Below, in pieces: positions 2,325 through 28,185 of a stretch of 64,000 nucleotides of DNA; within the stretch, counting starts at the first letter, position 1; every line of letters begins with the position of its first letter. This DNA comes from Candidatus Latescibacterota bacterium (GTDB taxonomy: Bacteria > Latescibacterota > UBA2968 > UBA8231): contig OZ252098.1 of the NCBI GenBank assembly GCA_965248355.1, positions 4,992,001-5,056,000 of the forward strand, written 5' to 3'. Under the pieces are notes generated by a model that was not told the DNA's origin, searched no databases, and saw only the letters and a program-made list of their open reading frames with translations. A program made the position numbers and the translations under genes.

Positions 2325-2379
2325 ACCCGGGCCGAGTCCGGCGGCCACCCGAAAGGCGGCCCGGCGGCCTGGGCGGGGG

Positions 2380-5366: not shown

Positions 5367-8300
5367 GCGCCAGGGGCCTCCTCGCCTCGATTGCGGTGGG
5401 AGCCCTGGCCGGCGCGGTGCCGGCGCCGGCCCAGAACCACCCCGAGCTCACCTGGCGGACGTTGGAGACGGAGCACTTCCGCGTGCTCTACCACGACGGC
5501 CTCGAGCACACGGCGCGGCAGGCGGCCGAGGTGGCGGAGGCCGCCTACGGCCCGGTGACGCGGCTCTACGGGTACCGGCCGGGGGGCCCGGTGCGGGTGA
5601 TCCTGAAGGACTACGACGACTACGGCAACGGCGCCGCCTTCTTCTACCACGACGCCATCGAGGTCTGGATCACCCCTCTCGAGCACGACTTCGAGCTGCG
5701 CGGCACCTCCGACTGGCTGCGCAACGTGATCACCCACGAGCTCGTCCACATCGTCTCCCTCGGCGCGGCGCGCAAGGGACCGCAGAGAGTGCCGGCCGCG
5801 TTCCTCGAGTATTTCGCGTACAAGCCGGAGAGCGAACGGGACGACATTCTCACCGGGGCGCCGGATCGCCTGGCCCTGCTGCCCCTGGCCAACACGGTGC
5901 TGCCCATGTGGTTCGCCGAGGGCGTCGCCCAGCACCAGACCGCGCAGCTCCGGCACGACCGCTGGGACAGCCACCGCGACATGGTCCTGCGCACGGCGGT
6001 CCTCGATGGCTCCCTGCTCTCTCTCGACGACATGGGCGTCTTCGGCAAGGCCGGCTTCGGCAACGAGTTCGTCTACGACCACGGCTACGGGCTGGTGAGG
6101 TACCTGGCCGAGACCTACGGCGACTCGACCCTGGCCGAGGTCTGCGAGCACATGGCGCGCTGGACGGCCACCGGCATCGACGGAGCCCTGCGCGCCGCCA
6201 CCGGCCGTTCGGCGGACCAGGTGTGGCGGGACTGGCGCGACTCGATGCGGGCCCGTTACCAGGCGCAGGTGGCGGCCCTCGGCGAGCTGCGCGAGGGGGA
6301 GCGCCTCACCGAGGAGGGGCACTCGAACACCCGGGCCGTGTACGCGCCGGACGGCGGGCGGCTGGCCTTCCTCTCGACCCTGGGCCGCCGCTACGGCCCC
6401 CACTTCCTGGTGCTGCGCGACCTCGAAAGCGGGGAGGACGAGGTCGTGGCCGCCGGGGTGGCCTCGGTGCCGGCCTGGTTCCCCGACGGCGAGCGCCTGC
6501 TCTTCGTCCGCAAGGACAAGGCGGACCGCTACGGATCGCGGCGGGCGGACCTGTTCGAGCACGACCTCACCCGGCCCGGGCGGCCGTGGACGGCGCAGTT
6601 GCTGTGGACGATCCCCGCCGTCACCGGGGCGTACGCCCCGAAGGATCCTCGCACCTCCCGCAGAACCCGCGGCCTGCGCGCCCTGTACCCGGCGGTGTCG
6701 CCCGACGGGGAGAGCATCGCCTTCGTGCGCCTCGGCGCCTCCGGAGCGGCCCTGGGCCTGGCGAACCGGGACGGGAGCGGGATCCGCTACCTGCTCGACT
6801 TCGACGACGGCACCCAGCTCTACACGCCGCGCTGGTCGCCCGACGGCCGCTGGCTGGCCCTGTCCTACTCCCGCGGAGGGCAGCGGGACATCGGCCTGGT
6901 CGAGGTCGACCCGGGCGGCGACGGACCGGAGCCGCGCCGCCTGCAACCCCTGATCGCGTCAGCCGCCACCGACCGCGACCCCTCGTGGTCGCCCGACGGC
7001 GAGCTGCTCTTCGTCTCCGACGTGAGCGGGATCTCCAACGTCTATGCCCGCGACCCGGCCAGCGGCGCGGTGGAGCAGATCACGAACGTACGCGGCGGCG
7101 CCTTCTTCCCGACGGCGAACGGCGCCGGCCAGGTGGTCTACAGCGGCTACGGAACCGACGGCTTCCATCTCTACCGGATCGAGCGCTCGGCGGGCGAGCC
7201 GGTGGCGCCCGGGGTCTTCCAGCCCTCCGACGCCCTGTTGGCGGCCGCGCCGGGACCTCCTTCCTCCCCCGATCCGGAAGAGCCGGACCCCCCGGCCGCG
7301 TCCTCCGGAACGGAGATACTGCGCACGACCTTCATGCCGCGGCTCTCCCACGACGAGGGCCTTGCCAAGGTCGGTGCCTACGTCGGCGCGGGCGACGCCC
7401 TCGACCGGCAGTCGGTCTTCGCCAGCCTCTCCGTGGCTCCCGGCAACGGAGACCGCGACTTCTACGGGGAGTACCGGTTCCGCGGCTTCCGTCCGACCTT
7501 CCGGCTGCGCTTCATCCACCTGAAGCGCCACTCGACGCGCGGCGACAGCTCGGAGGCACGGGACTACTTCGTCACGTCCATGAACTTCAGCCTCAACCGC
7601 CTGGCCCTCGGCGCCCGGGGGCAGCTGAACCGCGCCAGCTCGCTCGATCTGTCCCTGGCCTACGACCGCTACGACGCCAGTCTGGAGAACGACCAGCTCT
7701 TCCCGCGCAGCGACGGCCGGCCCGGCTTCGAGCGTGTCCCGGGCAAGCCGCTCGGCTACACCTACCTGCACGGCTTCGACCTGGCCCTGACCTACCGCCA
7801 CGACTCCCTGCCCCGGCGCGTGGACCGCGACATCCACCCCCGGGGCGGACGGCGCATCTACTTCCGCTATGACCGCATGCACAACTGGTTCATGGAGGGC
7901 TTCGACGCGCAGAACGCATCCTACTATCAGGAGGTGTACCTGGGCCTGTTCTACAACCAGCTCACCCTCGACTGGCGGGAGTACATCGCCCTGCCGGGCG
8001 ACACCGCCCTGGGGCTGCGCGCCTACGGCGGCTGGATCTTCTCCGACAGCGTCGACCACAAGGACGTGGGCGACTTCTTCGACTTCCACCTCGGGGGCCT
8101 TCCCTACATGCGGGGCTATACCTACTACAGCGTCGAGGGGCGCAAGGCGGCCATGGCCAACGCCACCCTCCGCTTCCCGCTCCTGCCGCGCCTGCGCAAG
8201 CGGGTGGGACCCCTCTACCTCCACCGGGTCCACGGCGCCGTGTACGGCGACCTCGGCAAGGCCTGGGACGGCGACCTCGGCGACCCCGACCCCATGTACG

Positions 8301-8500
8301 GACGCAAGGGACCGCTGCGCGACGCCGGTCTTCAGTTGCGGGTCGACGGGGTCTCCTTCTACAGTCTGCCCACCCGCCTCGAAGTCGACCTGGCCCACGG
8401 AATCGACGAGGTCGCCGGGAAGGACCCCTGGAAACTCTACCTCACCCTGCTGTTCAACTACCTCAACTGGATCGATCCCGGGAGTGATCTGACGCGATGA
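5363..8500 (+). CDS. Secreted protein: gluzincin (HELVH) domain + TolB/PD40 propeller + Omp85/BamA-like C-terminal barrel
   Basis: GTG overlaps the upstream stop (GTGA) and begins its own signal peptide. Motifs ITHELVH...WFAEGVAQH, PD40 repeats (YAPDG, WFPDG, VSPDG, WSPDG) and Omp85-like FHLGGLPYMRGY. The 1946-aa ORF in the track is an artefactual fusion. Confidence 0.75.
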   Translation: MSARGLLASIAVGALAGAVPAPAQNHPELTWRTLETEHFRVLYHDGLEHTARQAAEVAEAAYGPVTRLYGYRPGGPVRVILKDYDDYGNGAAFFYHDAIEVWITPLEHDFELRGTSDWLRNVITHELVHIVSLGAARKGPQRVPAAFLEYFAYKPESERDDILTGAPDRLALLPLANTVLPMWFAEGVAQHQTAQLRHDRWDSHRDMVLRTAVLDGSLLSLDDMGVFGKAGFGNEFVYDHGYGLVRYLAETYGDSTLAEVCEHMARWTATGIDGALRAATGRSADQVWRDWRDSMRARYQAQVAALGELREGERLTEEGHSNTRAVYAPDGGRLAFLSTLGRRYGPHFLVLRDLESGEDEVVAAGVASVPAWFPDGERLLFVRKDKADRYGSRRADLFEHDLTRPGRPWTAQLLWTIPAVTGAYAPKDPRTSRRTRGLRALYPAVSPDGESIAFVRLGASGAALGLANRDGSGIRYLLDFDDGTQLYTPRWSPDGRWLALSYSRGGQRDIGLVEVDPGGDGPEPRRLQPLIASAATDRDPSWSPDGELLFVSDVSGISNVYARDPASGAVEQITNVRGGAFFPTANGAGQVVYSGYGTDGFHLYRIERSAGEPVAPGVFQPSDALLAAAPGPPSSPDPEEPDPPAASSGTEILRTTFMPRLSHDEGLAKVGAYVGAGDALDRQSVFASLSVAPGNGDRDFYGEYRFRGFRPTFRLRFIHLKRHSTRGDSSEARDYFVTSMNFSLNRLALGARGQLNRASSLDLSLAYDRYDASLENDQLFPRSDGRPGFERVPGKPLGYTYLHGFDLALTYRHDSLPRRVDRDIHPRGGRRIYFRYDRMHNWFMEGFDAQNASYYQEVYLGLFYNQLTLDWREYIALPGDTALGLRAYGGWIFSDSVDHKDVGDFFDFHLGGLPYMRGYTYYSVEGRKAAMANATLRFPLLPRLRKRVGPLYLHRVHGAVYGDLGKAWDGDLGDPDPMYGRKGPLRDAGLQLRVDGVSFYSLPTRLEVDLAHGIDEVAGKDPWKLYLTLLFNYLNWIDPGSDLTR

Positions 8501-14977: not shown

Positions 14978-15970
14978 TCAGAACCGGACGTCGGCGGAGA
15001 GGAGATAGGTGCCCTCGAGGTCGTCGTGCTGCAGGTAGGCCACGTCGACCTGAAGCCGGCGATTGACCTGCAGACCCAGGCCGAAGGTCTGCCGGAGCTC
15101 CTCGAAGCCGGCGCGCAGGGCGAGCCGGCCGGCGTCGTACTCGATCCCCGCGTGGACCGGGGCCTTTCCGGCCTCGTCCTCGGCGTCGCCTCCGGAGCGC
15201 GAGCCGACGGCCACGGAGGCCCGGCCGCCGGCGATGGCGCGGTGATAGGCCATCCCCAACACGATGGACGGCAGTATGCGGTCGGTGGTGCCGTCCCAGA
15301 AGATGGGCGTAGTGGTCACGTCGCGGAGGTTGAAGGCCAGGGTCAGGGAGGATGCCGGGCGGTAGCGGAGGCCGAGGTCGAGGCCGGCGCCGTAGGCGGT
15401 GAGGTCGGCCACCGAGCGATGGATGAGCTTGACGCTGGCGCCGGCATCGAGATCCTGCCCCAGCCGCCGGCCCGCGGAGACGTACAGGGCGTAGTCGGCG
15501 GCCGATTGAGTGGACGAGACGAAGGGTCGGTTGTCGGGACCCAGGGGCGAGGACGGGTCGGGCAGGTCGGTGAAGGGGATGTCGTCGACGCCGAGGCGCA
15601 GCAGGGCGATGCCGAGGCCGTCGAAGAACGGGCCTGGCATGACGAAGGCCAGGTAGTCCTGCTGAACGAGGCCGTTGAAGCGCTCGCCGTGGGTGAAGTG
15701 GGCCTGACGCTCCGGGGAGCCCCCGAGGACGGCGCTGTTCCAGTACCCGGCGGTGGCGGCGTCGGCCAGGGCCACGTAGGCGCTGCCGAGGGCGAGGCCC
15801 CGGGCCCCGGCGCCGACGGCCAGGAACTCGCCGGCGTAGGCGCTGGCCGCGTGGCCGGGCCCGGCGGTCCACTGCAGGAGGGCGGCGCAGATCAGGGTTG
15901 CACCGGCGCGTGGGAGCAGGATCCGTCGAGTCACGGTTTCAAGTCTAGAGGTGGTGGACAAGGACTTCAA
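14978..15970 (-). CDS. Second PorV/PorQ family (UPF0164-like) beta-barrel protein
   Basis: Signal peptide; FLAVGAGARGLALGSAYVALADAATAGYWN; terminal LSADVRF. Confidence 0.75.
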   Translation of the reverse strand: MKSLSTTSRLETVTRRILLPRAGATLICAALLQWTAGPGHAASAYAGEFLAVGAGARGLALGSAYVALADAATAGYWNSAVLGGSPERQAHFTHGERFNGLVQQDYLAFVMPGPFFDGLGIALLRLGVDDIPFTDLPDPSSPLGPDNRPFVSSTQSAADYALYVSAGRRLGQDLDAGASVKLIHRSVADLTAYGAGLDLGLRYRPASSLTLAFNLRDVTTTPIFWDGTTDRILPSIVLGMAYHRAIAGGRASVAVGSRSGGDAEDEAGKAPVHAGIEYDAGRLALRAGFEELRQTFGLGLQVNRRLQVDVAYLQHDDLEGTYLLSADVRF

Positions 15971-15994
15971 CTCAGGCGGGCTCTCCAGGGTTCC

Positions 15995-17338
15995 TCAGCG
16001 GACCAGGATCAGTCTCAGGTCCATGACGTTGGTCCCGGTGGGTCCGGTGACGATCAGGTCGTCGAGAGCCTCGAACAGGGGGTGCGAGTCGTTGCGCTCC
16101 AGGTGTCCAGCCGCCGGCAGGCCGGCGGCGGCGGCGCGCGCCACGGTCGTGCCGTCGGCGATCGCACCGGCGGCATCCGTGGGGCCGTCGGTGCCGTCGG
16201 TTCCGGCGCTCATCACCGTGATGCCCTCGGCGCCCTCGAGATCGAGGGCCGCGGCCAGGGCGAACTCCTGGTTGCGGCCGCCCTTGCCGTGGCCGCGGAG
16301 GGTGACCGTGGTCTCGCCGCCGCTGATCACGCAGGCAGGCGCCGGCACCGGTTGCCCGCTGAGGGCGATCTCGGCGGCGATGGCGGCGTGGACCCCGGCG
16401 ACCTGGCGGGTTTCCCCGGCGATTCTCGTGGACAGCACGAAGGCGTGATATCCCCGGCGGAGCGCCTCCTCCCGGGCCGCGGAGACGGCCAGGGCGTTGT
16501 TGCCGATCACCAGGTTGAGAGCTGACTGCACCGACGGGTCGGCGGCGCCCGGCGTCTCGGGGAGATGGCCGCCGCCGCCGCGCTCGAAGCGCGCCAGCAC
16601 GGACCCGGGAAGCTCCTGGCGCAGCCGGTAGCGGTCGATGAGCCGCAGGCAGTCCTCGAAGGTCGTGGGATCGGCGCAGGTCGGTCCCGAGGCGATGGTA
16701 TGCAGGGGGTCCCCGATGACGTCGGAGATCATCAGAGACAGCACCCGCGCCGGGGCCGCCCGGCGGGCCAGTTGGCCGCCCTTGACCTCGGACAGGTGCT
16801 TGCGGACGGCATTGAGCTCGTCGATCGTGGCCCCGCAGCGAAGCAGGGCATCGGTGGTGGCGACTTTCTCCTCCAGGGAGATGCCGTCGGCGGGCGCCGG
16901 CATCAGGGCCGAGCCTCCGCCGGAGAACAGGCACAGCAACACGTCGTCGGGCCCGAGGCGGTCGACGAGCCGGAGCATGCGCCCGGTCCCCGCGATCCCG
17001 GCGGCATCGGGCAGAGGGTGTCCGCACTCCACCGTGTGGACGGTCTTCAACTCCCGGCGGTGGCCGTACTTGGTGTTGATGGAGCCGGCCGTGAGACGGG
17101 GCCCGAGCACGGCCTCGGCGGCGGCGGCCATGGCCGGCGTGGCCTTGCCCGCCCCGGCCATGACGATGCGGGAGGCGCCGGAAAGGGGCAGGCGATGGTC
17201 GCCGGCCAGCAGTTCGGAGCCGCGCAGTGACAGGGTGCCGCCGACCAACGGCCCCGGCTCCACGGCGGCGATGGCGGCCTGGAGAATGGCCAGACCGTCA
17301 CGGCGGCGCCTGGCGGCCCCGTCCTCCGGCCGCCTCAC
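15995..17338 (-). CDS. Glycerate 2-kinase (MOFRL/TtuD family)
   Basis: GAGKA, GHPLPD, SGGGSAL, RKHLSEVKGGQLA, SDVIGD, GGETTV, GGRNQE, GTDGTDG, GPTGTNVMD. Confidence 0.92.
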   Translation of the reverse strand: MRRPEDGAARRRRDGLAILQAAIAAVEPGPLVGGTLSLRGSELLAGDHRLPLSGASRIVMAGAGKATPAMAAAAEAVLGPRLTAGSINTKYGHRRELKTVHTVECGHPLPDAAGIAGTGRMLRLVDRLGPDDVLLCLFSGGGSALMPAPADGISLEEKVATTDALLRCGATIDELNAVRKHLSEVKGGQLARRAAPARVLSLMISDVIGDPLHTIASGPTCADPTTFEDCLRLIDRYRLRQELPGSVLARFERGGGGHLPETPGAADPSVQSALNLVIGNNALAVSAAREEALRRGYHAFVLSTRIAGETRQVAGVHAAIAAEIALSGQPVPAPACVISGGETTVTLRGHGKGGRNQEFALAAALDLEGAEGITVMSAGTDGTDGPTDAAGAIADGTTVARAAAAGLPAAGHLERNDSHPLFEALDDLIVTGPTGTNVMDLRLILVR

Positions 17339-17345
17339 GGGAGGG

Positions 17346-17975
17346 TCACATCCTCCTCATCAGGCCCACCACCTTGCCCGCGATGCGCAACTGGGTCCCC
17401 TCTTCGCCGGAGAGTACGATGGGCTCGTAGGCCGGGTTCTCCGGGAGGAGCCGGACGGCCCCGGGGATCGGATCGAAGCGTTTGACGGTGGCCTCGTCGT
17501 CGAGCAGGGCGACGACGATGTCGCCGCGGTCGGCCGTCGACTGCTGGCGGGCGACGACGATGTCTCCGTCGAGGATGCCGGCCTCGGTCATGCTGTCGCC
17601 CCGTACTCGCAGGGCGAAGGCTTCGCCCGACGCCGGCGCCAGCGACGGGTCCACGTGAATGGTGGTCTCCACGTTCTCCTCGGCCAGGATCGGAGCGCCG
17701 GCGGCGACCCGGCCGAGAACGGGCACCTGGACCGTTTCGTGCTCGGCCAGGTAGGGGCCGCCGGCGACCAGCTCGATGCCCCGCGACAGGCGGGGATGGC
17801 GGCGGATGTGGCCCTTTTTCTCCAGCGCGGCCAGGGTGGTCCGCACGCCATTGGTGGAGTTGATGCCGAACTGCTCCATGATCTCGCGGATGGTGGGCGG
17901 GGCCCCGCGTCCGCGGATGATGCCGGCGATGAAGTCGAAGATCGCCCGCTGACGCTCGGTCAGTGCTTTCGGCAT
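17346..17975 (-). CDS. lexA: SOS repressor LexA
   Basis: N-terminal wHTH (LTERQ...PPTIREI), Ala-Gly cleavage site VAAG, catalytic GDSM and TVKR. Confidence 0.95.
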   Translation of the reverse strand: MPKALTERQRAIFDFIAGIIRGRGAPPTIREIMEQFGINSTNGVRTTLAALEKKGHIRRHPRLSRGIELVAGGPYLAEHETVQVPVLGRVAAGAPILAEENVETTIHVDPSLAPASGEAFALRVRGDSMTEAGILDGDIVVARQQSTADRGDIVVALLDDEATVKRFDPIPGAVRLLPENPAYEPIVLSGEEGTQLRIAGKVVGLMRRM

Positions 17976-18038
17976 GGCCTGGCCTCCTCTCCGTGATGTC
18001 GGGTGTGCGCGTCCCGATCCAAGGCAACCGATACGCCC

Positions 18039-18067
18039 AATTTACTGCACATTCGTTCATTTGTCAA
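18039..18067 (-). promoter_or_regulatory. Sigma70-type lexA promoter with a candidate SOS box in the spacer
   Basis: Minus strand reads TTGACA-17 nt-TAAATT; the spacer contains TGAAC-GAAT-GTGCA (18046-18059). Confidence 0.7.
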
Positions 18068-18094
18068 CTGATGGCCCGTCTCCCCGCTCTCTGG

Positions 18095-18123
18095 TTGACA
18101 AAGTCCACCCTTCTCTCTACCGT
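18095..18123 (+). promoter_or_regulatory. Divergent sigma70-type promoter for the 18200/18735 genes
   Basis: TTGACA (18095-18100)-17 nt-TACCGT (18118-18123). Confidence 0.55.
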
Positions 18124-18199
18124 ACTGTGCCAATTGATCGTAAGTCCACCAGTTTCACGGAGTTGGCTCATTCCCCGGGTAGCCTGACGGCCTTTGCAG

Positions 18200-18730
18200 A
18201 TGACCCTCTCCAACCTCGATCCATCCGCCGCGGTCCGCGCCTTGGCCGCGTGCTTCGTCTTCGGCCTGCTGCCGCTCGCCGCGGACGGGTCCCCCTCCGA
18301 CGACGGAAGCCCGGATGGATCACCCGCCGCCCGGGAGCTGGGGGCCGTCCAGGCCTCCTCCTCGGCCGGGTCCAGGTCTCCGATCACGATCCGTCGAACC
18401 CTCGGCCTGGCCTTTCTCGCGGGGGGCGCGGCTCTCACCGCCAGGGGATTCGACTACAAGGACGAGGCCGACGCCTTCTACGACGCCTACAGGGCCGCCG
18501 ACGACGAGGCCGAGATCCAGAGGCTCTACCAGCGCACGACGAACCGGGACGTGAAGAGCCAGGTCAGCTGGGCCCTGGCCGCGGCCTGCGGCATCACCGG
18601 CCTGCGGCTCCTGTTCACCGGCGGCGGCGAGCTCCAGAGCACCTCCCTGCCGGGCCGCTCCTCCCTCGCCCTGGTCCACGCCCCGGAGCTCCGGGGCGTG
18701 GGTCTGCGCTTGCAGCGCCGTTTCCACTGA
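18200..18730 (+). CDS. Hypothetical membrane protein
   Basis: Signal-like N-terminus and two hydrophobic segments flanking a charged helix; GC-rich codon usage; ends a few bases before the FN3 gene. Confidence 0.6.
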   Translation: MTLSNLDPSAAVRALAACFVFGLLPLAADGSPSDDGSPDGSPAARELGAVQASSSAGSRSPITIRRTLGLAFLAGGAALTARGFDYKDEADAFYDAYRAADDEAEIQRLYQRTTNRDVKSQVSWALAAACGITGLRLLFTGGGELQSTSLPGRSSLALVHAPELRGVGLRLQRRFH

Positions 18731-18734
18731 TCCG

Positions 18735-21700
18735 GTGAAGGCTCCCCTCATCATGAAGAGTATCGCCGCCGGCGCCCTGCTGCTCGCGCTCTACGCCCTG
18801 GGCTGCGACCGCGATCGCAGCAACCCTCTCGACCCGCAGGCGGACCTGGTCGAGGGCCGCCCCGCAACCCCGGCGGAACTCTCCGTGGGGGGAGACGTGG
18901 GCGTCATCCGCCTGTCCTGGAAGCCGGTCACCGACCCCGACCTGGCGGGTTACGCCGTGCTCCGCTCGGTCCACTCCAACGGCACCTTCTCCTTCGTCGC
19001 CGGAGAGGGCGACTCGACGGCCGGGATCACCACGGGCAAGACCACCTACGTCGACACCATTCACGGCGGCAAGCTCACCTTCTTCTACCGGGTGGCCTCC
19101 GTCGACACCAACGGTCTTCGCAGTCAGCTGTCGGGATTCGTGGGGGCCACGTCATTGTCGGACGACCGTTCGCCGGGCGCGCCTCATTCGTTGTCGGCGG
19201 TGGCGTCGGATCGAGCGGGGGAGGTGGTGGTTCGTTGGAGCGCCCCGTTGACGGACACGGGGGGGGAGCCTCTGTCGGGTTTGTCGGGGTACGTGCTTCT
19301 TCGTTCGGAGTCGGGGGCGGGGGGTCTGGTGCCGGTGGACACTCTTTCGGCGGGCGTTCAGGAGTATCGGGACACGGGTTTGAAGAGCCGGACGACGTAT
19401 TCGTACAGCGTGGTGGCGTTCGACGCGTTGGGGAACACGAGCAGCGCGAGCTCGGCGGTGTCGGTGACGTCGTCGGGTCTGTCGTCCCCGGAGGGTTTGC
19501 GGGCGTCGGCGGGGATCGGCCGGATCGAGTTGCTGTGGTCGTCGGTGGGGGCGTCGTCTCTGGTGGGCTACGACGTGTATCGGTCGTCGACGTCGGACGG
19601 GACGTATCGGCGCCTGGCGGGGGGGGAGGGGACGTCTTTCACGACGGGCCTGACGAGCTACGTGGACAGCAATCTTTCGGGGGGCCAGCGGTATTACTAC
19701 AAGATCCGTTCGGTGGGTGAGGCCGGGGCGGTGAGCGAGCTGTCGGGATTCGTGGGGGCCACGTCATTGTCGGACGACCGTTCGCCGGGCGCGCCTCATT
19801 CGTTGTCGGCGGTGGCGTCGGATCGAGCGGGGGAGGTGGTGGTTCGTTGGAGCGCCCCGTTGACGGACACGGGGGGGGAGCCTCTGTCGGGTTTGTCGGG
19901 GTACGTGCTTCTTCGTTCGGAGTCGGGGGCGGGGGGTCTGGTGCCGGTGGACACTCTTTCGGCGGGCGTTCAGGAGTATCGGGACACGGGTTTGAAGAGC
20001 CGGACGACGTATTCGTACAGCGTGGTGGCGTTCGACGCGTTGGGGAACACGAGCAGCGCGAGCTCGGCGGTGTCGGTGACGTCGTCGGGTCTGTCGTCCC
20101 CGGAGGGTTTGCGGGCGTCGGCGGGGATCGGCCGGATCGAGTTGCTGTGGTCGTCGGTGGGGGCGTCGTCTCTGGTGGGCTACGACGTGTATCGGTCGTC
20201 GACGTCGGACGGGACGTATCGGCGCCTGGCGGGGGGGGAGGGGACGTCTTTCACGACGGGCCTGACGAGCTACGTGGACAGCAATCTTTCGGGGGGCCAG
20301 CGGTATTACTACAAGATCCGTTCGGTGGGTGAGGCCGGGGCGGTGAGCGAGCTGTCGGGATTCGTGGGGGCCACGTCATTGTCGGACGACCGTTCGCCGG
20401 GCGCGCCTCATTCGTTGTCGGCGGTGGCGTCGGATCGAGCGGGGGAGGTGGTGGTTCGTTGGAGCGCCCCGTTGACGGACACGGGGGGGGAGCCTCTGTC
20501 GGGTTTGTCGGGGTACGTGCTTCTTCGTTCGGAGTCGGGGGCGGGGGGTCTGGTGCCGGTGGACACTCTTTCGGCGGGCGTTCAGGAGTATCGGGACACG
20601 GGTTTGAAGAGCCGGACGACGTATTCGTACAGCGTGGTGGCGTTCGACGCGTTGGGGAACACGAGCAGCGCGAGCTCGGCGGTGTCGGTGACGTCGTCGG
20701 GTCTGTCGTCCCCGGAGGGTTTGCGGGCGTCGGCGGGGATCGGCCGGATCGAGTTGCTGTGGTCGTCGGTGGGGGCGTCGTCTCTGGTGGGCTACGACGT
20801 GTATCGGTCGTCGACGTCGGACGGGACGTATCGGCGCCTGGCGGGGGGGGAGGGGACGTCTTTCACGACGGGCCTGACGAGCTACGTGGACAGCAATCTT
20901 TCGGGGGGCCAGCGGTATTACTACAAGATCCGTTCGGTGGGTGAGGCCGGGGCGGTGAGCGAGCTGTCGGGATTCGTGGGGGCCACGTCATTGTCGGACG
21001 ACCGTTCGCCGGGCGCGCCTCATTCGTTGTCGGCGGTGGCGTCGGATCGAGCGGGGGAGGTGGTGGTTCGTTGGAGCGCCCCGTTGACGGACACGGGGGG
21101 GGAGCCTCTGTCGGGTTTGTCGGGGTACGTGCTTCTTCGTTCGGAGTCGGGGGCGGGGGGTCTGGTGCCGGTGGACACTCTTTCGGCGGGCGTTCAGGAG
21201 TATCGGGACACGGGTTTGAAGAGCCGGACGACGTATTCGTACAGCGTGGTGGCGTTCGACGCGTTGGGGAACACGAGCAGCGCGAGCTCGGCGGTGTCGG
21301 TGACGTCGTCGGGTCTGTCGTCCCCGGAGGGTTTGCGGGCGTCGGCGGGGATCGGCCGGATCGAGTTGCTGTGGTCGTCGGTGGGGGCGTCGTCTCTGGT
21401 GGGCTACGACGTGTATCGGTCGTCGACGTCGGACGGGACGTATCGGCGCCTGGCGGGGGGGGAGGGGACGTCTTTCACGACGGGCCTGACGAGCTACGTG
21501 GACAGCAATCTTTCGGGGGGCCAGCGGTATTACTACAAGATCCGTTCGGTGGGTGAGGCCGGGGCGGTGAGCGAGCTGTCGGGATTCGTGGGGGCCACGT
21601 CATTGTCGGACGACCGTTCGCCGGGCGCGCCTCATTCGTTGTCGGCGGTGGCGTCGGATCGAGCGGGGGAGGTGGTGGTTCGTTGGAGCGCCCCGTTGAC

Positions 21701-24674
21701 GGACACGGGGGGGGAGCCTCTGTCGGGTTTGTCGGGGTACGTGCTTCTTCGTTCGGAGTCGGGGGCGGGGGGTCTGGTGCCGGTGGACACTCTTTCGGCG
21801 GGCGTTCAGGAGTATCGGGACACGGGTTTGAAGAGCCGGACGACGTATTCGTACAGCGTGGTGGCGTTCGACGCGTTGGGGAACACGAGCAGCGCGAGCT
21901 CGGCGGTGTCGGTGACGTCGTCGGGTCTGTCGTCCCCGGAGGGTTTGCGGGCGTCGGCGGGGATCGGCCGGATCGAGTTGCTGTGGTCGTCGGTGGGGGC
22001 GTCGTCTCTGGTGGGCTACGACGTGTATCGGTCGTCGACGTCGGACGGGACGTATCGGCGCCTGGCGGGGGGGGAGGGGACGTCTTTCACGACGGGCCTG
22101 ACGAGCTACGTGGACAGCAATCTTTCGGGGGGCCAGCGGTATTACTACAAGATCCGTTCGGTGGGTGAGGCCGGGGCGGTGAGCGAGCTGTCGGGATTCG
22201 TGGGGGCCACGTCATTGTCGGACGACCGTTCGCCGGGCGCGCCTCATTCGTTGTCGGCGGTGGCGTCGGATCGAGCGGGGGAGGTGGTGGTTCGTTGGAG
22301 CGCCCCGTTGACGGACACGGGGGGGGAGCCTCTGTCGGGTTTGTCGGGGTACGTGCTTCTTCGTTCGGAGTCGGGGGCGGGGGGTCTGGTGCCGGTGGAC
22401 ACTCTTTCGGCGGGCGTTCAGGAGTATCGGGACACGGGTTTGAAGAGCCGGACGACGTATTCGTACAGCGTGGTGGCGTTCGACGCGTTGGGGAACACGA
22501 GCAGCGCGAGCTCGGCGGTGTCGGTGACGTCGTCGGGTCTGTCGTCCCCGGAGGGTTTGCGGGCGTCGGCGGGGATCGGCCGGATCGAGTTGCTGTGGTC
22601 GTCGGTGGGGGCGTCGTCTCTGGTGGGCTACGACGTGTATCGGTCGTCGACGTCGGACGGGACGTATCGGCGCCTGGCGGGGGGGGAGGGGACGTCTTTC
22701 ACGACGGGCCTGACGAGCTACGTGGACAGCAATCTTTCGGGGGGCCAGCGGTATTACTACAAGATCCGTTCGGTGGGTGAGGCCGGGGCGGTGAGCGAGC
22801 TGTCGGGATTCGTGGGGGCCACGTCTCTGTCGGACGACCGTTCGCCGGAGCCGCCGCCCGGGGTGGCCGCCGTGGCCGACGCCTCCGATCCGTCGCGGAT
22901 CACCCTGAGTTGGGGTGCGCCCTCGAGGGACGCCGGCGGGGGACCCCTGACAGGTCTGTCGGGTTTCATCCTGCTCCGTGCCGAAGGGGACGGCTCCTTC
23001 GTGCGCGCCGCCTCCCTGGGCGCCGGCCAGCGCCGGTTCGACGACACCGGTCTGAAGTCTCTGACGACCTATCGCTATGCCCTCATCGCCGTCGATGGCG
23101 CCGGCAACGAGAGCGCCCTCTCCCCCGTCGCCCAGGTGACGACGACCGGCGTTCCGGCGCCGGCCGCTGTGACCGCTGACGACGGTTTCGGCCGCATCGA
23201 GCTGAACTGGGCCGCCGTCCACCACGTCGATCTGCTCGGATACAACGTGTACCGGGCGACGCGTCCGGATCAGCCCTTCTCGCGCCTGGAAGGGGACGGC
23301 GGGGAAGCCTTCAGCACGGGCCGCACGACCTTCGTCGACTCGAGTCTGGCCGCCGGCCAGTTGTTCTACTACAAGGTCACCACCGTCACCGCCGAACTCG
23401 AGAGCGATCCCTCGGCGCTCGTCAGCGCTTCGGCAGCGGCCGACGACGTGGCGCCAGCTGCTCCCACCGGTCTCGTGGCCATCGCCGCCGACGACCGGGC
23501 CGAGGTGTCCTTGCGCTGGTCGAGGCCGCGCACCGACCAGGACGGCGGCGATCTGACGGGGCTCCGCAGCTTTGTCGTCTACCGGGCGCAGGACGGACCC
23601 GGGGCCTTGTCGGCAGTCGATACGGTCGACGCCGGCTCGAGCGCCTTTACCGACACCGGCCTCGAACCGGCCACGACTTACTACTATTCCGTCAGCGCCA
23701 CCGATGGCTCGGGCAACGTCAGTCCACGCGCCCTGACCGTGTCGGCCACGACCCCGGGGATCTCTCCCCCCGCCGCGCTCTCCACCAGCGGTGAGGTGAC
23801 CCGCATCACGGTCTCCTGGAACGCCAGCGATGAGGATGACCTCCTCGGCTACAACGTCTACCGCTCGACCCGCCCCGACGAGGGGTATGCGCGTCTCGCC
23901 GGCGCCGAGGGCACACCCTTCACCACCGGTCAGACGAGCTACGTCGACTCCAACCTGCCGGGCGGCCAGATCCTCTATTACCGGGTCTCCGTGGTGACCT
24001 CCTCCGGCGAGAGCGATCCCTCCGCCTTCAGCGGCGCCACAGTGCTCGTCGACCTCCACGCTCCGGAGGCGCCTTCGCAGGTCACGGGGCGGCCGGTCCC
24101 CGGCCATCCCGACCAGCTCGAGCTGTCCTGGCGGGCCCCGAGGAGCGACGAGGACGGGGGCCGGCTCACCGGCGTGAGCGGGTACGTCGTCTACCGCGCC
24201 GCCGAGGCTACAGGCGACTTCACGGAGCTCGACTCGACGGTGACGAGCACCTTCGTCGACACCGCCCTGTCCCAGCGTACCACCTACTACTACCAGGTCG
24301 AAGCCTTTGACGCCGAGGGCAACCTGGGTCCGAGGTCGGAGACCGCCTCGGCCACGACGGGCGGCGTCGATCTGCCCACCAACGTGCGGCTGGTCGCCGC
24401 GACGCCGTCCAATCCCAACGACCGCCCCGTGGTGACGATCAGTTGGGTGGCTTCGAAGGGGGCCATTCTGCGCTACGAGGTGCAACGGACGACGGTCGCC
24501 AACAGCACCCGGGACGGCGATTACACCGAGATCCTTCCCCACGCGATCGGCACGACCCGGGAGGACGACACGGTCCGGCGCGGGCAGACTTACTACTACC
24601 GCGTGCGAGCGGTCGATATTGACGACCGCGCAAGCGAATGGACCGAGCCGCTCGGAATCACCGTCTCCGAATGA
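18735..24674 (+). CDS. Giant fibronectin type III repeat lipoprotein (about 19 FN3 domains)
   Basis: Lipobox ALGC then DRDRSNPLDP; recurring FN3 pattern P..L....L.W......GY.VYR...Y.D..L....Y.Y.V. Confidence 0.88.
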   Translation: MKAPLIMKSIAAGALLLALYALGCDRDRSNPLDPQADLVEGRPATPAELSVGGDVGVIRLSWKPVTDPDLAGYAVLRSVHSNGTFSFVAGEGDSTAGITTGKTTYVDTIHGGKLTFFYRVASVDTNGLRSQLSGFVGATSLSDDRSPGAPHSLSAVASDRAGEVVVRWSAPLTDTGGEPLSGLSGYVLLRSESGAGGLVPVDTLSAGVQEYRDTGLKSRTTYSYSVVAFDALGNTSSASSAVSVTSSGLSSPEGLRASAGIGRIELLWSSVGASSLVGYDVYRSSTSDGTYRRLAGGEGTSFTTGLTSYVDSNLSGGQRYYYKIRSVGEAGAVSELSGFVGATSLSDDRSPGAPHSLSAVASDRAGEVVVRWSAPLTDTGGEPLSGLSGYVLLRSESGAGGLVPVDTLSAGVQEYRDTGLKSRTTYSYSVVAFDALGNTSSASSAVSVTSSGLSSPEGLRASAGIGRIELLWSSVGASSLVGYDVYRSSTSDGTYRRLAGGEGTSFTTGLTSYVDSNLSGGQRYYYKIRSVGEAGAVSELSGFVGATSLSDDRSPGAPHSLSAVASDRAGEVVVRWSAPLTDTGGEPLSGLSGYVLLRSESGAGGLVPVDTLSAGVQEYRDTGLKSRTTYSYSVVAFDALGNTSSASSAVSVTSSGLSSPEGLRASAGIGRIELLWSSVGASSLVGYDVYRSSTSDGTYRRLAGGEGTSFTTGLTSYVDSNLSGGQRYYYKIRSVGEAGAVSELSGFVGATSLSDDRSPGAPHSLSAVASDRAGEVVVRWSAPLTDTGGEPLSGLSGYVLLRSESGAGGLVPVDTLSAGVQEYRDTGLKSRTTYSYSVVAFDALGNTSSASSAVSVTSSGLSSPEGLRASAGIGRIELLWSSVGASSLVGYDVYRSSTSDGTYRRLAGGEGTSFTTGLTSYVDSNLSGGQRYYYKIRSVGEAGAVSELSGFVGATSLSDDRSPGAPHSLSAVASDRAGEVVVRWSAPLTDTGGEPLSGLSGYVLLRSESGAGGLVPVDTLSAGVQEYRDTGLKSRTTYSYSVVAFDALGNTSSASSAVSVTSSGLSSPEGLRASAGIGRIELLWSSVGASSLVGYDVYRSSTSDGTYRRLAGGEGTSFTTGLTSYVDSNLSGGQRYYYKIRSVGEAGAVSELSGFVGATSLSDDRSPGAPHSLSAVASDRAGEVVVRWSAPLTDTGGEPLSGLSGYVLLRSESGAGGLVPVDTLSAGVQEYRDTGLKSRTTYSYSVVAFDALGNTSSASSAVSVTSSGLSSPEGLRASAGIGRIELLWSSVGASSLVGYDVYRSSTSDGTYRRLAGGEGTSFTTGLTSYVDSNLSGGQRYYYKIRSVGEAGAVSELSGFVGATSLSDDRSPEPPPGVAAVADASDPSRITLSWGAPSRDAGGGPLTGLSGFILLRAEGDGSFVRAASLGAGQRRFDDTGLKSLTTYRYALIAVDGAGNESALSPVAQVTTTGVPAPAAVTADDGFGRIELNWAAVHHVDLLGYNVYRATRPDQPFSRLEGDGGEAFSTGRTTFVDSSLAAGQLFYYKVTTVTAELESDPSALVSASAAADDVAPAAPTGLVAIAADDRAEVSLRWSRPRTDQDGGDLTGLRSFVVYRAQDGPGALSAVDTVDAGSSAFTDTGLEPATTYYYSVSATDGSGNVSPRALTVSATTPGISPPAALSTSGEVTRITVSWNASDEDDLLGYNVYRSTRPDEGYARLAGAEGTPFTTGQTSYVDSNLPGGQILYYRVSVVTSSGESDPSAFSGATVLVDLHAPEAPSQVTGRPVPGHPDQLELSWRAPRSDEDGGRLTGVSGYVVYRAAEATGDFTELDSTVTSTFVDTALSQRTTYYYQVEAFDAEGNLGPRSETASATTGGVDLPTNVRLVAATPSNPNDRPVVTISWVASKGAILRYEVQRTTVANSTRDGDYTEILPHAIGTTREDDTVRRGQTYYYRVRAVDIDDRASEWTEPLGITVSE
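19126..22825 (+). repeat. Intragenic tandem array: six 612-bp units plus 28 bp
   Basis: The unit start AGCTGTCGGGATTCGTGGGGG recurs every 612 bp. The ORF track shows identical 161-aa shadow ORFs at 19235, 19847, 20459, 21071, 21683 and 22295. Confidence 0.97.
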
Positions 24675-24730
24675 CCTAGCCGGGGGAATGCTCCAGGGAA
24701 GGGCGTGGCCGCCGCCCACCCGGATCTGAC

Positions 24731-26152
24731 ATGCCAGCCAGCGGACCGACGAACGGTCTCGGAGTCATCCTGGTCCGGGCCCTGAGAGAAGCACAGGTCG
24801 CCCACGGCGACGGCATCGTCGTCGCCGCCTCCGGCGGCCTCGACTCCATGGTCCTGCTGGATCTCCTGCACCGGGTCGAGGCACCTGGTGGCCTGCACCT
24901 CCACGTGGCCCATCTGGATCATCGATTGCGTGCCGAATCCGCGGTGGACGCCCGATTCGTGGCCGCCGCCGCGGCGCGTCTCGGTCTGCCGGCCACGGTG
25001 GAAGCCGTGGACGTGGCCGCGCGGGCCCACCGTTTCGGCCGGTCCCTGGAAGAGGAGGGCCGGGCGGCTCGGTACGAGCTATTCGAGCGGGTCCGGAAGC
25101 GGGCCGGGTGTCGGTGGGTGGCCCTCGGCCATCATGCCGACGATCAAGCCGAGACCATGCTCCTGCGTCTGCTCCGGGGTGCGGGACCCACCGGGCTGGG
25201 GGCCATGTCCCCGGTCCGCGCCCCCGGGGTCATCCGTCCACTGCTGGGCGCCACCCGCGCCCAGATCCGCGCATACGCCTCCCGGGAGGGTATCGAGTAC
25301 CGTGAGGACCGCAGCAACCGCGATCTCTCGGTCCCCCGGAACCGCGTCCGCCACGAGTTGCTGCCGAGCCTGAGGCGGCGTCACAACCCAGCCGTGGTCG
25401 ATGCCCTGTCACGTACCGCGTCGCTGCTGCGCGATGAGGACGACTATCTCGACGAGGTCAGCCGCGGGGCGGCGAGGGAGGTCCTGATGCAGCGCGATCC
25501 AGCGGGTGTCACACTTGATGCCCAGTGCCTGCGCGGCTATCATATAGCCGTCCGGCGGCGTGTCTTACGTCAGTATATTCAAGAGCTTGCGCACCACATG
25601 CCGGTCTCCCGGACCGCCGTGGAGACGGTCGCCGAGGCGGCCGGATCCTCGTCATCCGGCCTGCGGTCGATCGGTGGCGGCCTGTGGGTGCAGGCCACCG
25701 GCGGGAGCCTGATTCTGCGTCGCGGCCCGGCCTCCAACGTCCAAGCCAGAGTCGAGCTTCCGGGGCGCACCCGGATCCCTGAGCGGGGGGTCGCGCTGGA
25801 GGCGCGGTTCCTCGACCCCGCGAGGTTCGAGGCGGTTCGCCCGTCCCTTGACGGCTGGCGCGCCGCCTTCGACGCCGGGGCGGCGGAAGGGGAATTGTCG
25901 TTGCGCAGTCCGCGGCCAGGCGATCGTCTGCAACCCCTGGGCATGGAGGGGCGTCACAAGAAGCTCAGCGACTGCTTCGTCGACGCCAAGTGGCCGAGGA
26001 TCCTCCGGCCCGAAGCACTGCTGCTGACCCGCAGGCCCGCCACCCCGGGCCCAGGGGAGGAGATCCTCTGGGTTGCGGGGCTGGCCCGCAGCCACACGCA
26101 TCGGGTCGCGGCGAGCAGTCGGCGCATCCTGTACCTTGAGTTCGAGTCCTAG
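24731..26152 (+). CDS. tilS: tRNA(Ile)-lysidine synthetase
   Basis: SGGLDS, HLDHRLR, GHHADDQAET, IRPLL, RNRVRH, KKLSDCF. Confidence 0.95.
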   Translation: MPASGPTNGLGVILVRALREAQVAHGDGIVVAASGGLDSMVLLDLLHRVEAPGGLHLHVAHLDHRLRAESAVDARFVAAAAARLGLPATVEAVDVAARAHRFGRSLEEEGRAARYELFERVRKRAGCRWVALGHHADDQAETMLLRLLRGAGPTGLGAMSPVRAPGVIRPLLGATRAQIRAYASREGIEYREDRSNRDLSVPRNRVRHELLPSLRRRHNPAVVDALSRTASLLRDEDDYLDEVSRGAAREVLMQRDPAGVTLDAQCLRGYHIAVRRRVLRQYIQELAHHMPVSRTAVETVAEAAGSSSSGLRSIGGGLWVQATGGSLILRRGPASNVQARVELPGRTRIPERGVALEARFLDPARFEAVRPSLDGWRAAFDAGAAEGELSLRSPRPGDRLQPLGMEGRHKKLSDCFVDAKWPRILRPEALLLTRRPATPGPGEEILWVAGLARSHTHRVAASSRRILYLEFES

Positions 26153-26160
26153 GAGCCCCC

Positions 26161-28185
26161 ATGGCAGAGCGCGAAGGTCCACAAGGCGAAGGCCGCGACC
26201 GGGGCGAAGGTGGTACCGGGGAAGACCCCCCCCGCGTCCCTTGGCGCTGGCCGTCCCGGGGCCGCGCCTTCTGGATCTTTCTGATCCTCGTCCTCATCAT
26301 CGCCGCCAAGTTCTTCGGCAGCATGCCGACGGACAGCCGCGAGGTCTCCTACGTTCAGTATCGCGAGTTCCTCAAGGACCGGCAGATCATGCGCGCCAAG
26401 ATCGTCGGCGACGAGGAGTTTCAGGGGGTCTTGAGCGACGGCACCCGCTTCGTCGTCAACCTCGGTCCCATCGACGCGGAGACCAAGCGCGAGTGGGAGG
26501 AGGCCGGCGTCGACTTCTCCTTCGAGGAGAAGCCCTTCCAGTGGTACTCGGTGCTCATCTCCTTCCTGCCGTGGCTGTTGTTCATCGGCTTCTGGATCTT
26601 CATGCTTCGCCAGATGCAGGGAGGTCCGCGCGGCCTGTTCTCCTTCGGCAAGAGTCGAGCCCGCCTGCTGACGGAGGACAAGCGCAAGACCACCTTCCGC
26701 GAGGTGGCCGGTGCCGACGAGGCCAAGGAGGAGCTCAACGAGATCATCGAGTTCCTCAAGGATCCCAAGAAGTTCCAGCGCCTCGGGGGCCGCACCCCGA
26801 AGGGCGTGCTCCTCGTGGGCGCCCCGGGTACCGGCAAGACCCATCTCGCCCGCGCCGTGGCCGGAGAGGCGGGGGTGCCCTTCTTCTCGATCAGTGGCTC
26901 CGACTTCGTCGAGATGTTCGTCGGCGTGGGGGCCTCCCGCGTGCGCGACCTGTTCGAGCAGGGCAAGGCGAGCGCCCCGTGCATCATTTTCATCGACGAG
27001 ATCGACGCCGTCGGCCGCCACCGGGGAGCGGGCATCGGAGGCGGCCACGACGAGCGCGAGCAGACCCTCAACCAGCTGCTCGTCGAGATGGACGGCTTCG
27101 AGTCGAACGACGGCGTGATCCTCATCGCCGCCACCAACCGCCCCGATGTGCTCGATCCCGCCCTGCTGCGGCCCGGCCGATTCGACCGCCGCGTGGTGGT
27201 CAGCCTGCCCGACGTGCGCGGCCGCAAGGGCATCCTCGAGGTGCATTCGCGCAACGTCCCCCTGAGCGAGGACGTCGACATGGAACGCCTGGCCAAGGGC
27301 ACGCCCGGGCTGACGGGAGCCGATCTCGAGAGCATGGTGAACGAGGCCGCCCTGCTGGCCTCGAGGCGGGATCGCGAGCAGGTGGTCATGGTGGACATGG
27401 AGGACGCCAAGGACAAGGTCATGCTCGGCGCCGAGCGCAAGAGCATGATCATGACCGAGGAGGACAAGAAGCTGGCCGCCGTGCACGAGGCCGGCCACGC
27501 CCTGGCGGCCAAGCTCACGCCGGGGTCGCCGCCGATCAACAAGGCCGTCATCGTGCCCCGGGGTCAGACCATGGGCATGGTCTCCTTCCTGGCCGAAGAG
27601 CGTCACTCCGTGACCGAGTCCCGCCTGCGCGCCCACCTCGTGACCGGCCTCGGCGGCTGCTGCGCCGAAGTCCTGGTCTTCGGCGAACGCTCCACAGGGG
27701 CCCAGGCCGACTACAAGCAGGTCACGGCCCTGGCCCGCAGCATGGTCTGCGACTGGGGCATGAACAAGGATCTGGGGCCCTTGGCCCTGGGAGGGGAGGG
27801 GGAGGAGGTCTTTCTGGGCAAGGAATTCGCCCGGACCCGCAACTTCTCCGAGCAGACGGCCCAGACCATCGACCGCGAGATCCGGGGCCTCGTGATCGAC
27901 GCCGAGCAACGGGCCGCGGCGCTGCTGGCGGAGAACCGCCGGCAGCTCGACGACCTGGCCACGGCCCTGCTCGAGTACGAGGTCCTCGACGACGCCGAGA
28001 TCGACCGCATCCTGAATGGCCAGCCGTTGCATCGTGAGCCCGTGGCGGAGGCAGCTCCGGAGGAAGAGGCCACTTCGGGGAACGGGGCGGCCGAGGCGCC
28101 CTCCGATGGCGGCGCCGAGGGCGAGGAAGCGGCCGACTCGAGCGCCGCCCCCTCTCCGCCGCTCGGCGGTCCCTCTCCGGGGTGA
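26161..28185 (+). CDS. ftsH: ATP-dependent zinc metalloprotease FtsH
   Basis: Two TM segments, [29 protein letters not shown]. Confidence 0.97.

Follow-up and report, generated by a model that had tools for sequence, protein, structure and literature searches.

Strand-biased base composition confined to homogenised FN3 repeats in a putative surface-protein gene of a Latescibacterota bacterium and its orthologues

We analysed a 64,000-nucleotide stretch of contig OZ252098.1 (assembly GCA_965248355.1, Candidatus Latescibacterota bacterium, positions 4,992,001 to 5,056,000), referred to here as the window. On its plus strand, the open reading frame (ORF) list, translation, Pfam and the N-termini of orthologues place a gene at 18735..24674 for a 1,979-aa, lipoprotein-like putative surface protein made up almost entirely of FN3 domains. 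Part of this gene is a tandem array of identical units with a sense strand rich in G and poor in C, and the composition of that array is the subject of this work. Pfam fn3 matches the protein over eight stretches (E = 4.5e-75), and Pfam on the whole protein returned only FN3/Ig-like domains up to the C-terminus, with no distinct distal domain. The true start is probably the ATG at 18753 and not the GTG at 18735, which would lie 18 nt (six codons) too early, because full-length orthologues all begin at the ATG (MKSIAAG...). The translations read from there as a hydrophobic N-terminal segment ending in cysteine (...YALGC; 18753..18806, +), then DRDRSNPLDPQ. This putative lipobox-like signal is kept in the orthologues, where the cysteine is followed by a conserved DR[DE]RSNPLDPQ.

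A-type and B-type FN3 domains were parsed with purpose-built profiles, which gave the order B0-(A-B)x6-(A-B)-(A-B)-A-B'. The domain parse and per-domain skew mark B0 (18858..19125, +) as a unique B-type domain with C-ending codons and a skew of G over C at third codon positions (GC3 skew) of -0.33; its final 12 residues already lie within the repeat block. Next comes the homogenised array (19126..22797, +) of six 612-bp units, each coding for one A-type and one B-type domain (204 aa). The units start at 19126, 19738, 20350, 20962, 21574 and 22186 and show no differences at any of the 612 positions in all six copies. A partial seventh copy of 51 nt with two mismatches (22798..22848, +) forms the right-hand junction, where the skew ends; over its full 612 nt, this seventh block has 290 differences from the unit. 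The rest of the gene (22849..24671, +) holds unique paralogous modules: M7 and M8, each with an A and a B domain, and M9, with an A domain and a divergent C-terminal FN3-like domain. M7 and M8 share 45-49% amino acid identity with the unit and M9 shares 35%, and all three have C-ending codons (GC3 skew -0.10 to -0.48). Inside one unit only 28/103 residues are identical between the A and B domains, so neighbouring domains are never alike although the units are identical. Tandem Repeats Finder gave no report for the array, the 612-bp period being above its 500-nt limit.

The composition of the sense strand switches within this single gene. In 300-nt windows, GC skew lies between +0.27 and +0.33 in the array, whereas the flanking parts of that gene span -0.20 to +0.11; AT skew in the array is -0.18 to -0.39. 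In 600-nt windows over the whole 64 kb, the array reaches +0.300, compared with a mean of -0.011 (sd 0.070) and a maximum of +0.217 outside it; the highest outside value comes from a gene on the minus strand whose third positions are very rich in C. The switch is confined to ~30-60 nt around the block edges, and the skew is limited to positions 19126-22848 of one ORF, not to a whole replichore or transcription unit. A preliminary description of this DNA had proposed that the array has its own G/T-skewed composition with sharp edges, and the sliding-window values bear this out. The sense strand of the array is 43.8% G, 23.7% C, 20.9% T and 11.6% A, and its GC3 skew is +0.55 in A domains and +0.48 in B domains. 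Total G+C is 0.67-0.68 in the array vs 0.68-0.72 in the adjoining unique parts, and G+C at third positions (GC3) is 0.84 in the unit vs 0.87-0.90 in the unique parts.

Codon usage shows the same break. Third positions in the unit are 0.21 C (C3), 0.64 G (G3) and 0.14 T (T3), compared with 0.63, 0.27 and 0.07 in the 5' unique part and 0.55, 0.32 and 0.10 in the 3' unique part, in agreement with the earlier observation that the unique FN3 copies are C-ending. The GC3 skew of the unit is +0.51, vs -0.50 to +0.08 (mean -0.18, sd 0.11) in a background of 432 windows of 204 codons; this background was drawn from 30 of 34 candidate ORFs, leaving out three shadow-like ORFs (G+C at first positions, GC1, below 0.6) and the FN3 gene itself. 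Counts confirm every codon that had been named as typical of the repeats: TCG (26 of 39 Ser codons), GTG (17/19), GGG (16/29), TTG (8/20), CGT (4/13), TAT (5/11) and CTT (4/20). ACC, GTC, CTC and CCC do not occur in the unit at all, and GCC (0.68 to 0.17), TCC (0.38 to 0.03) and CGC (0.48 to 0.08) are replaced by their G-ending synonyms. Some codons stay C-ending, namely GAC (9/10), TTC (3/3), ATC (3/3) and AGC (9/9). Across four-fold boxes the unit has 11 C and 107 G, vs 277 C and 166 G in the unique parts (Fisher p = 4e-27), a significant difference. The protein changes as well. In the window array, the share of Ser grows from 0.11 to 0.20 and that of Gly from 0.11 to 0.15, and T at codon position 1 rises from 0.16 to 0.28 via Ser TCN. 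A shift towards Val, also claimed in the preliminary description, did not hold up (0.09 in both); the example peptides given there (WSSVGASSLVGY, WAAVHHVDLLGY and WNASDEDDLLGY) are all present in the protein.

Of 5,586 candidate proteins in a search started from the unit, 117 proved to be relatives. In the full-length relatives the arrays sit at the same position in the protein, and the units of P0003, P0002 and P0004 are 99%, 93% and 68% identical to the window unit. P0003 has six identical units, with three substitutions relative to the window that are present in all six and no polymorphism among copies, and its unique C-terminus is identical to that of the window at 609/613 positions. In P0002, which has seven units, 13 differences are shared by every copy and nine columns are polymorphic. 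P0004 has five complete anchor-to-anchor units (~6 in all), and the N-terminally truncated records P0010 and P0016 have at least 3-4. Unit number is thus six in the window, six in P0003 and seven in P0002, counts in which an assembly error is possible. These patterns represent concerted evolution with variation in unit number among close relatives.

A scan of reference genomes gave 78 loci, seven of which share gene order with the window, for eight loci in total. The conserved order is a glycerate-kinase-like gene on the opposite strand, the FN3 gene, tilS and ftsH, and the seven are true orthologues of the window locus. Over the unique C-terminal part, L001 is ~77% identical to the window and L002-L004 are 51-54% identical. 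The genes of L001-L004 contain near-identical repeats of 609-612 or 930 bp, and their GC3 skew climbs to +0.2 to +0.67 over precisely the repeat parts. In L005, L007 and L008 the best partner of any domain reaches at most 0.86 identity, and skewed domains are absent. A run of N at ~8019-9186 in L005 falls within the 5' portion of the gene, at the expected site of an array, and fits an unresolved array. These three loci show only that single-copy domains are unskewed; they are uninformative on array presence, because of the N run in L005 and the short-read-style assemblies of L005 and L008.

Arrays in the Latescibacterota-labelled orthologues are mosaics of 612-bp (A-B) and 930-bp (A-A-B) units drawn from several domain sub-families (L002, 6620-11263; L003, 4508-11269; L004, 6002-11252). 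The skewed, homogenised zone of L002-L004 extends into positions that are held by unique modules in the window. In the window itself, the upstream neighbour is the glycerate-kinase-like gene (DUF4147/MOFRL), within 14981-18060 on the minus strand, and tilS-ftsH lie downstream in 24731-28182 (+). The ORFs at 17335-18060 (-) and 17974-18738 (+) had no Pfam match. Further away, a 2,067-aa ORF at 2297-8497 (+) joins beta-propeller repeats (FG-GAP and PD40) to a peptidase MA-like region and, at its C-terminal end, an Omp85-type barrel. As an outer-membrane protein this would be an unusual fusion.

To relate skew to homogenisation, we binned domains by nucleotide identity to the nearest domain of the same type in the same gene, using 129 of the 138 parsed domains from the eight syntenic genes (domains shorter than 86 aa or containing N were dropped). 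GC3 skew averages +0.47 (+0.16 to +0.68; n = 58) at an identity of at least 0.97, +0.29 at 0.90-0.97 (n = 6) and +0.07 at 0.80-0.90 (n = 8). It is -0.45 to -0.14 at 0.70-0.80 (n = 6) and averages -0.17 (-0.50 to +0.11; n = 51) below 0.70. The correlation between identity and skew (Spearman 0.77) is descriptive only, the domains being non-independent as array copies and members of related species. The earlier proposal that the skew is tied to the array is therefore well founded, as the skew recurs in orthologous arrays of other domain lineages. This recurrence also bears on the idea that the signal is an assembly or polishing artefact. Multi-mapping polishing reads can exaggerate the identity of the six copies. 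Set against this, the frame is open through 3.7 kb, composition is independent of copy number, the same skew appears in L001 (a short-read-style assembly) and in the three other assemblies of L002-L004, and the seven non-identical units of P0002 show that variation between copies is resolvable. We find an artefact scarcely credible.

Domain trees, for which identical protein rows were collapsed within each gene, place the 17 skewed A-domain rows in four clades, with no fewer than three state changes required by the well-supported branches. A single origin of A-domain skew is allowed by none of 200 bootstrap trees. The array A domain of the window and L001 has as its sister group the first A domain of L002-L004, L007 and L008, a single-copy domain without skew, and one clade of array A domains from L002-L004 is sister to an unskewed L008 domain. 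For B domains there are two changes, well-supported branches force only one, and a single origin is compatible with the tree. The separation of skewed domains on the tree is conservative because convergence in amino acid content would draw them together. Comparison of the modules (unit vs M7, 90/200 aa; unit vs M8, 99/202; M7 vs M8, 90/199) shows that the unit is as distant from M7 and M8 as those are from each other. It is therefore a paralogue of long standing, and recent copying from its neighbours is excluded.

These trees also bear on import of the unit, by horizontal transfer or by conversion from a donor with G/T-ending codons, for which the abrupt compositional break at both edges could speak. 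In the tree, the A domain of the unit clusters with its positional counterpart, the first A domain of the orthologues, and the branching resembles that of the other domains. None of the eight host loci has G-ending usage (coding GC3 skew of flanking genes, -0.03 to -0.25), and the same skew is found in arrays of other lineages. The unit had no match in plasmid and phage collections, and the 117 protein hits included no foreign relative that was closer, so the G/T-ending donor that the preliminary description had allowed for as a closest relative was not found. Its judgement that the unit is homologous to its neighbours and import a weak explanation stands, and we regard import as very improbable. 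The unit is vertical and not foreign in origin, and the skew tracks array state in at least two array lineages of non-orthologous modules.

The spectrum of the bias was counted in the five array-bearing genes, with each distinct domain sequence taken once. At four-fold sites, C falls from 0.41-0.56 in unique domains to 0.09-0.18 in arrays (e.g. 0.56 to 0.09) and G rises from 0.33-0.45 to 0.67-0.78 (e.g. 0.33 to 0.76). T gains a little (0.04-0.09 to 0.08-0.14), and A is low everywhere. At two-fold C/T sites the T fraction hardly moves in the window (0.18 to 0.21), L001 (0.19 to 0.19) and L004 (0.26 to 0.24), with modest rises in L002 and L003. Only Tyr shifts among these boxes (TAT 0.60 in arrays vs 0.21 in unique domains), and its codon choice depends strongly on the next base, with TAC at 29/29 before A and TAT at 37/40 before C; the independent homologous sites behind the Tyr pattern may be few. 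Excluding Tyr, two-fold T is 71/538 in arrays (0.13) vs 69/382 in unique domains (0.18), an odds ratio of 0.69, and the T fraction moves the opposite way for GAY (0.13 vs 0.23) and AGY (0.05 vs 0.14). Other changes in arrays include a drop in third-position A (A3, 0.015 in the unit) with a GAG share of 0.94 vs 0.78, a rise of TTG/(TTG+CTG) to 0.26-0.59 vs 0.14-0.22, replacement of AGG by CGG and of Ser AGY by TCN, and more T and less C at codon position 1. Third positions also respond to their neighbours: G3 is 0.83 before G and 0.41 before C, where T3 is 0.30, and the loss of C3 is stronger after a pyrimidine (C3 0.05-0.13) than after G (0.18-0.31).

We compared these frequencies with a four-state equilibrium model built on the composition of unique domains. 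Raising only C>T and A>G requires a 55-62-fold increase to reach the observed C, and then predicts T at 0.36-0.54 of four-fold and ~0.92 of two-fold sites, unlike the data. If all changes towards G and T are raised, the four-fold sites are matched but two-fold sites should have 64-76% T. An 8-18-fold increase in C>G alone accounts for four-fold and two-fold sites together, with T3 under-predicted. The core signal is a G-for-C exchange on one strand, and a deamination spectrum is at most a minor component of it.

The preliminary description had favoured deamination of the single-stranded sense strand during conversion or slippage (C>T, A>G). Asymmetric deamination has been proposed for replication skews and for the mitochondrial heavy strand, and the direction here, with G above C and T above A on one strand, is the classical one. 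The fall of A-ending codons (GAG from 0.78 to 0.94), the rise of TTG among Leu codons and the shift of Tyr to TAT (0.60 vs 0.21) point the same way, so the minor A>G-type shifts survive from that claim. As the main process it fails: two-fold sites other than Tyr gain no T (71/538 vs 69/382), four-fold sites are 67-78% G and only 8-14% T, and the model both needs a 55-62-fold increase and mispredicts T (0.36-0.54 and ~0.92). We consider deamination quite improbable as the explanation.

We tentatively favour, at somewhat less than even confidence, a recombination-linked, strand-asymmetric fixation bias that drove the sense strand G-rich and mildly T-rich during homogenisation. In this scheme a single strand of one unit would anneal out of register to the complement of another, via slippage, template switching or gene conversion, and sites that differ between the units would become mismatches. 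Mismatch repair would then remove some incoming alleles and overlook others. By a published asymmetry, C:C would be the worst-corrected mismatch and G:G the best-corrected, and a G/C difference would yield one or the other depending on the incoming strand and so be resolved very unequally. If the incoming strand were usually the antisense (lagging-nascent) one, sense-strand C>G changes would spread and G>C changes would be erased. Many such rounds would produce a GC skew restricted to the homogenised tract, with some amino acids dragged along. Differences between C and T would give G:T or A:C mismatches, both well repaired, and would remain roughly balanced. The contrast between four-fold and two-fold sites fits this scheme because C/T mismatches are well repaired and C:C is missed, and the rise of GAG and TTG and the move from AGG to CGG fit the same mismatch logic. 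Evidence for this reading comes from the sharp limits of the skew at the array edges, its graded rise with identity between domains, its recurrence on the A-domain tree, the C>G-dominated spectrum and the concerted evolution seen in P0003. We infer that the bias acts at fixation and not at mutation, that mismatch repair is the discriminator, and which strand is the incoming one.

Substitutions between L003 and L004, polarised by L002, give C>G at 0.087 per site (8/92) and G>C at 0.010 (6/578), with C>T and T>C equal at 0.13. These counts are consistent with the fixation bias and are not proof of it, as the numbers are small and parsimony favours the common base. Four-fold divergence is 0.206 in arrays vs 0.093 in unique parts for L003-L004 and 0.35 vs 0.27 for L002-L003. 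For the window and L001 it is 0.230 vs 0.314, an array value that is nearer saturation given the skewed composition. Synonymous sites in the arrays are under no extra constraint.

The same figures can be read as a bias in mutational input, in which repair or restart synthesis, or damage to an exposed strand followed by abasic-site bypass, produces sense-strand C>G errors with some C>T and G>T, leaving the array at its own mutational equilibrium. Arrays mostly evolve as fast or faster at four-fold sites (0.206 vs 0.093 and 0.35 vs 0.27), the protein likewise changes as fast or faster in the array (3/204 residues in P0003 vs 4/613 in its unique C-terminus), polarised C>G is ~8 times G>C per site, and nonsynonymous positions are pulled in the same direction. 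To our knowledge, no bacterial process gives strand-specific C>G without at least equal C>T; with C>T expected alongside C>G, the unmoved two-fold C/T sites count against such an input. In addition, polarised counts cannot tell input from fixation bias at compositional equilibrium, and homogenised FN3 repeats of other phyla lack a similar skew. We think a mutational origin improbable.

Several observations weigh against the fixation bias that we prefer. FN3 repeats of other phyla, with ~90-99.6% identity, lack positive skew in all six evaluable loci (L059, L074, L076, L037, L009 and L035; GC3 skew in repeats -0.02 to -0.55). The skew is therefore not a general result of homogenisation and must depend on lineage, gene or array age. 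The assignment of the incoming strand is a guess. The replication component of the flank skew is only -0.02 to +0.09 (+0.04 to +0.05 in L002-L004), and gene order and orientation are conserved in all seven other loci, so the transcription and replication strands are indistinguishable. With arrays of this gene only, selection specific to the gene is inseparable from a lineage-wide repair bias. Minor alleles within arrays number 55 away from G/T and 36 towards it, with equal rates per site, although these counts have low power and are dominated by diverged edge copies. Finally, a pure G/C asymmetry would predict neither the additional T at position 1 (Ser TCN) nor the move of Tyr towards TAT.

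The main competing explanation is selection on the DNA itself. A sense strand rich in G and T and poor in C and A would make the array prone to recombination, either through more stable RecA filaments on TG-rich single-stranded DNA or through R-loops on the G-rich non-template strand. Only arrays of this kind would keep their units identical and their length variable, or they would be favoured because a surface protein of varying length is useful. Causality is reversed here, with skew leading to homogenisation. RecA is reported to prefer TGG/TG-rich single-stranded DNA, with filaments most stable there and least stable on CCA (PMC3763553). TGG/GTG/GGT triplets have a frequency of 0.087-0.109 in arrays vs 0.043-0.052 in unique parts and CCA-class triplets are 2-5 times rarer; the non-template strand has 43.8% G and 26 runs of three or more G per unit vs two runs of C; and unit number varies among close relatives (6, 6, 7). 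The correlation with identity and the parallel evolution fit selection as well as they fit the fixation bias. Counts of triplets, G runs and G/T runs are no higher than composition predicts, however, and the array contains no canonical G-quadruplex motif. A preference for G and T should also have made GAC, AAC, TTC, ATC and AGC T-ending, which is not so, and a preference for G only leaves the T3 rise and the replacement of AGG by CGG unexplained. Second-order selection would have had to recode about half of the codons, twice. We rate this explanation as possible but unlikely. Neither it nor the fixation bias accounts for the unskewed FN3 repeats of other phyla.

We also considered functions that a G-rich sense strand might serve. 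An overlapping or antisense gene was rejected, as all five other frames have at least one stop per unit. Six identical 161-aa, TTG-started ORFs do occur in frame +3, one per unit (within 19235-22780, +); as candidates for a second gene they fail, their frame having one stop per unit. On the minus strand, an 835-aa antisense ORF covers the unique 3' part (22212-24719) and is the usual shadow frame of a high-GC gene; it ends where it reaches the array because the G-ending codons there alter the antisense frame.

Sites for G-quadruplexes were rejected, with 0 canonical motifs in the array. The 26 runs of three or more G per unit compare with 24.8 expected by shuffling synonymous codons (p = 0.34), and G-cluster initiation motifs are marginal (16 vs 7.4, p = 0.05). 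Each unit carries two G8 tracts (12 per array) and two G6 tracts, e.g. around 19260 and 22670, because of runs of GGG-GGG-GAG codons. Slipping at these tracts would lead to frames with one or five stops per unit. As phase-variation sites they were rejected, since the arrays of L001 and L004 contain no tract of at least seven G and the feature is thus not conserved; the shuffle p-values for these long tracts are inflated, the units being duplicates.

The mRNA is not predicted to be less structured in arrays (predicted minimum free energy per nucleotide -0.42 to -0.48, vs -0.43 to -0.45 in unique parts of the five genes). Chi-like or RecA-type motifs were likewise rejected, with TGG-class triplets and G/T runs at or below the shuffle expectation; GGTGGTGG is found once per unit, with four further plus-strand copies in the rest of the window. 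There is no support for avoidance of Rho loading sites, i.e. pyrimidine-C dinucleotides (odds ratio 1.04 in arrays and 1.02 in unique parts), nor for slowing of translation by rare codons, as the rarest, A-ending codons are even rarer in the unit (A3 0.015). No RNA family reached threshold in 17500-25500. These functional readings of the G-rich sense strand leave no trace beyond base composition.

Whatever its cause, homogenisation is accompanied here by a very large one-strand shift, with GC3 skew at +0.5 where the genes of the genome are at about -0.2. The shift recodes roughly half of the codons, changes amino acid content and recurs in arrays of different modules. A bias in repair or conversion, if true, would be a new force on codon usage and a measurable footprint of recombination polarity. 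If conversion is strand-asymmetric, the GC3 skew of an array would read out which strand carries information between repeats, as well as the intensity and duration of homogenisation and the specificity of host mismatch repair. If selection is instead responsible, these arrays would be a bacterial counterpart of eukaryotic G-rich recombinogenic repeats. There are also practical consequences. Horizontal-transfer detectors based on composition would wrongly call such arrays foreign, and measures of codon usage would misjudge the expression level of array genes.

The array joins two known phenomena, concerted evolution and strand-biased composition. Our literature search, largely outside subscription journals and supplements, found no paper on bacterial coding repeats in which a GC or keto skew is limited to the homogenised copies. 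Recombination is credited with keeping the coding repeats of bacterial surface proteins nearly identical, which allows the proteins to vary in length. The closest match of this kind is with Periscope proteins, bacterial surface proteins of variable length described in two reports (PMC8201768, PMC9704523). Both have tandem repeats of folded domains with very high DNA identity and both vary in unit number (6, 6 and 7 here), with intragenic homologous recombination as the proposed source. Periscope proteins are located at the cell surface, and the sequence of the FN3 protein predicts a putative surface anchor. Judged at the sequence level, the FN3 protein would qualify as a Periscope protein. It differs in its N-terminal lipobox-like anchor, its Latescibacterota/Gemmatimonadota-labelled lineage and its unit of two unlike FN3 domains, and no distinct distal 'head' domain was found in it. 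The word 'skew' is absent from the main texts of PMC8201768 and PMC9704523, where 'codon' appears only for a construct codon-optimised for E. coli; by this term search, neither main text mentions the compositional island. Spider silk genes are similar in having long coding arrays kept near-identical by concerted evolution, and differ in being eukaryotic.

In GC-biased gene conversion, recombination or repair shifts composition and raises G+C in the same way on both strands. This process and molecular drive resemble our case in that the shift arises by recombination or repair, stays within the tract that recombines and changes the amino acids along with the DNA. They differ in that G+C does not rise here and C is exchanged for G on one strand only. 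We rejected GC-biased gene conversion as a label, there being no gain in G+C and a strand-specific bias (GC skew +0.30). That the array instead reflects an undescribed biased gene conversion, strand-asymmetric and essentially C>G-specific, acting through missed C:C and removed G:G mismatches, is a speculative proposal that we hold to be rather unlikely.

Classical skews of replication and transcription are attributed to C>T changes. Those asymmetries, including that of the mitochondrial heavy strand, have the same sign as ours (G>C, T>A). The array differs in magnitude (GC3 skew +0.5, vs a replication component of at most 0.09 in the flanks), in covering part of one ORF, and in being dominated by transversions with two-fold C/T sites unaffected. 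R-loops and recombination are also features of immunoglobulin switch regions and G-rich minisatellites, tandem repeats whose non-template strand is G-rich. At 43.8% G, with G clusters in six tandem units, the non-template strand of the array lies above the threshold of ~40% for R-loop-prone sequence. The array differs from switch regions in being bacterial and protein-coding, with 612-bp units of folded domains and no deaminase. In its tandem repeats, its G-clustered non-template strand and its link to recombination it resembles switch regions and minisatellites, which, on composition only, are the nearest functional analogy.

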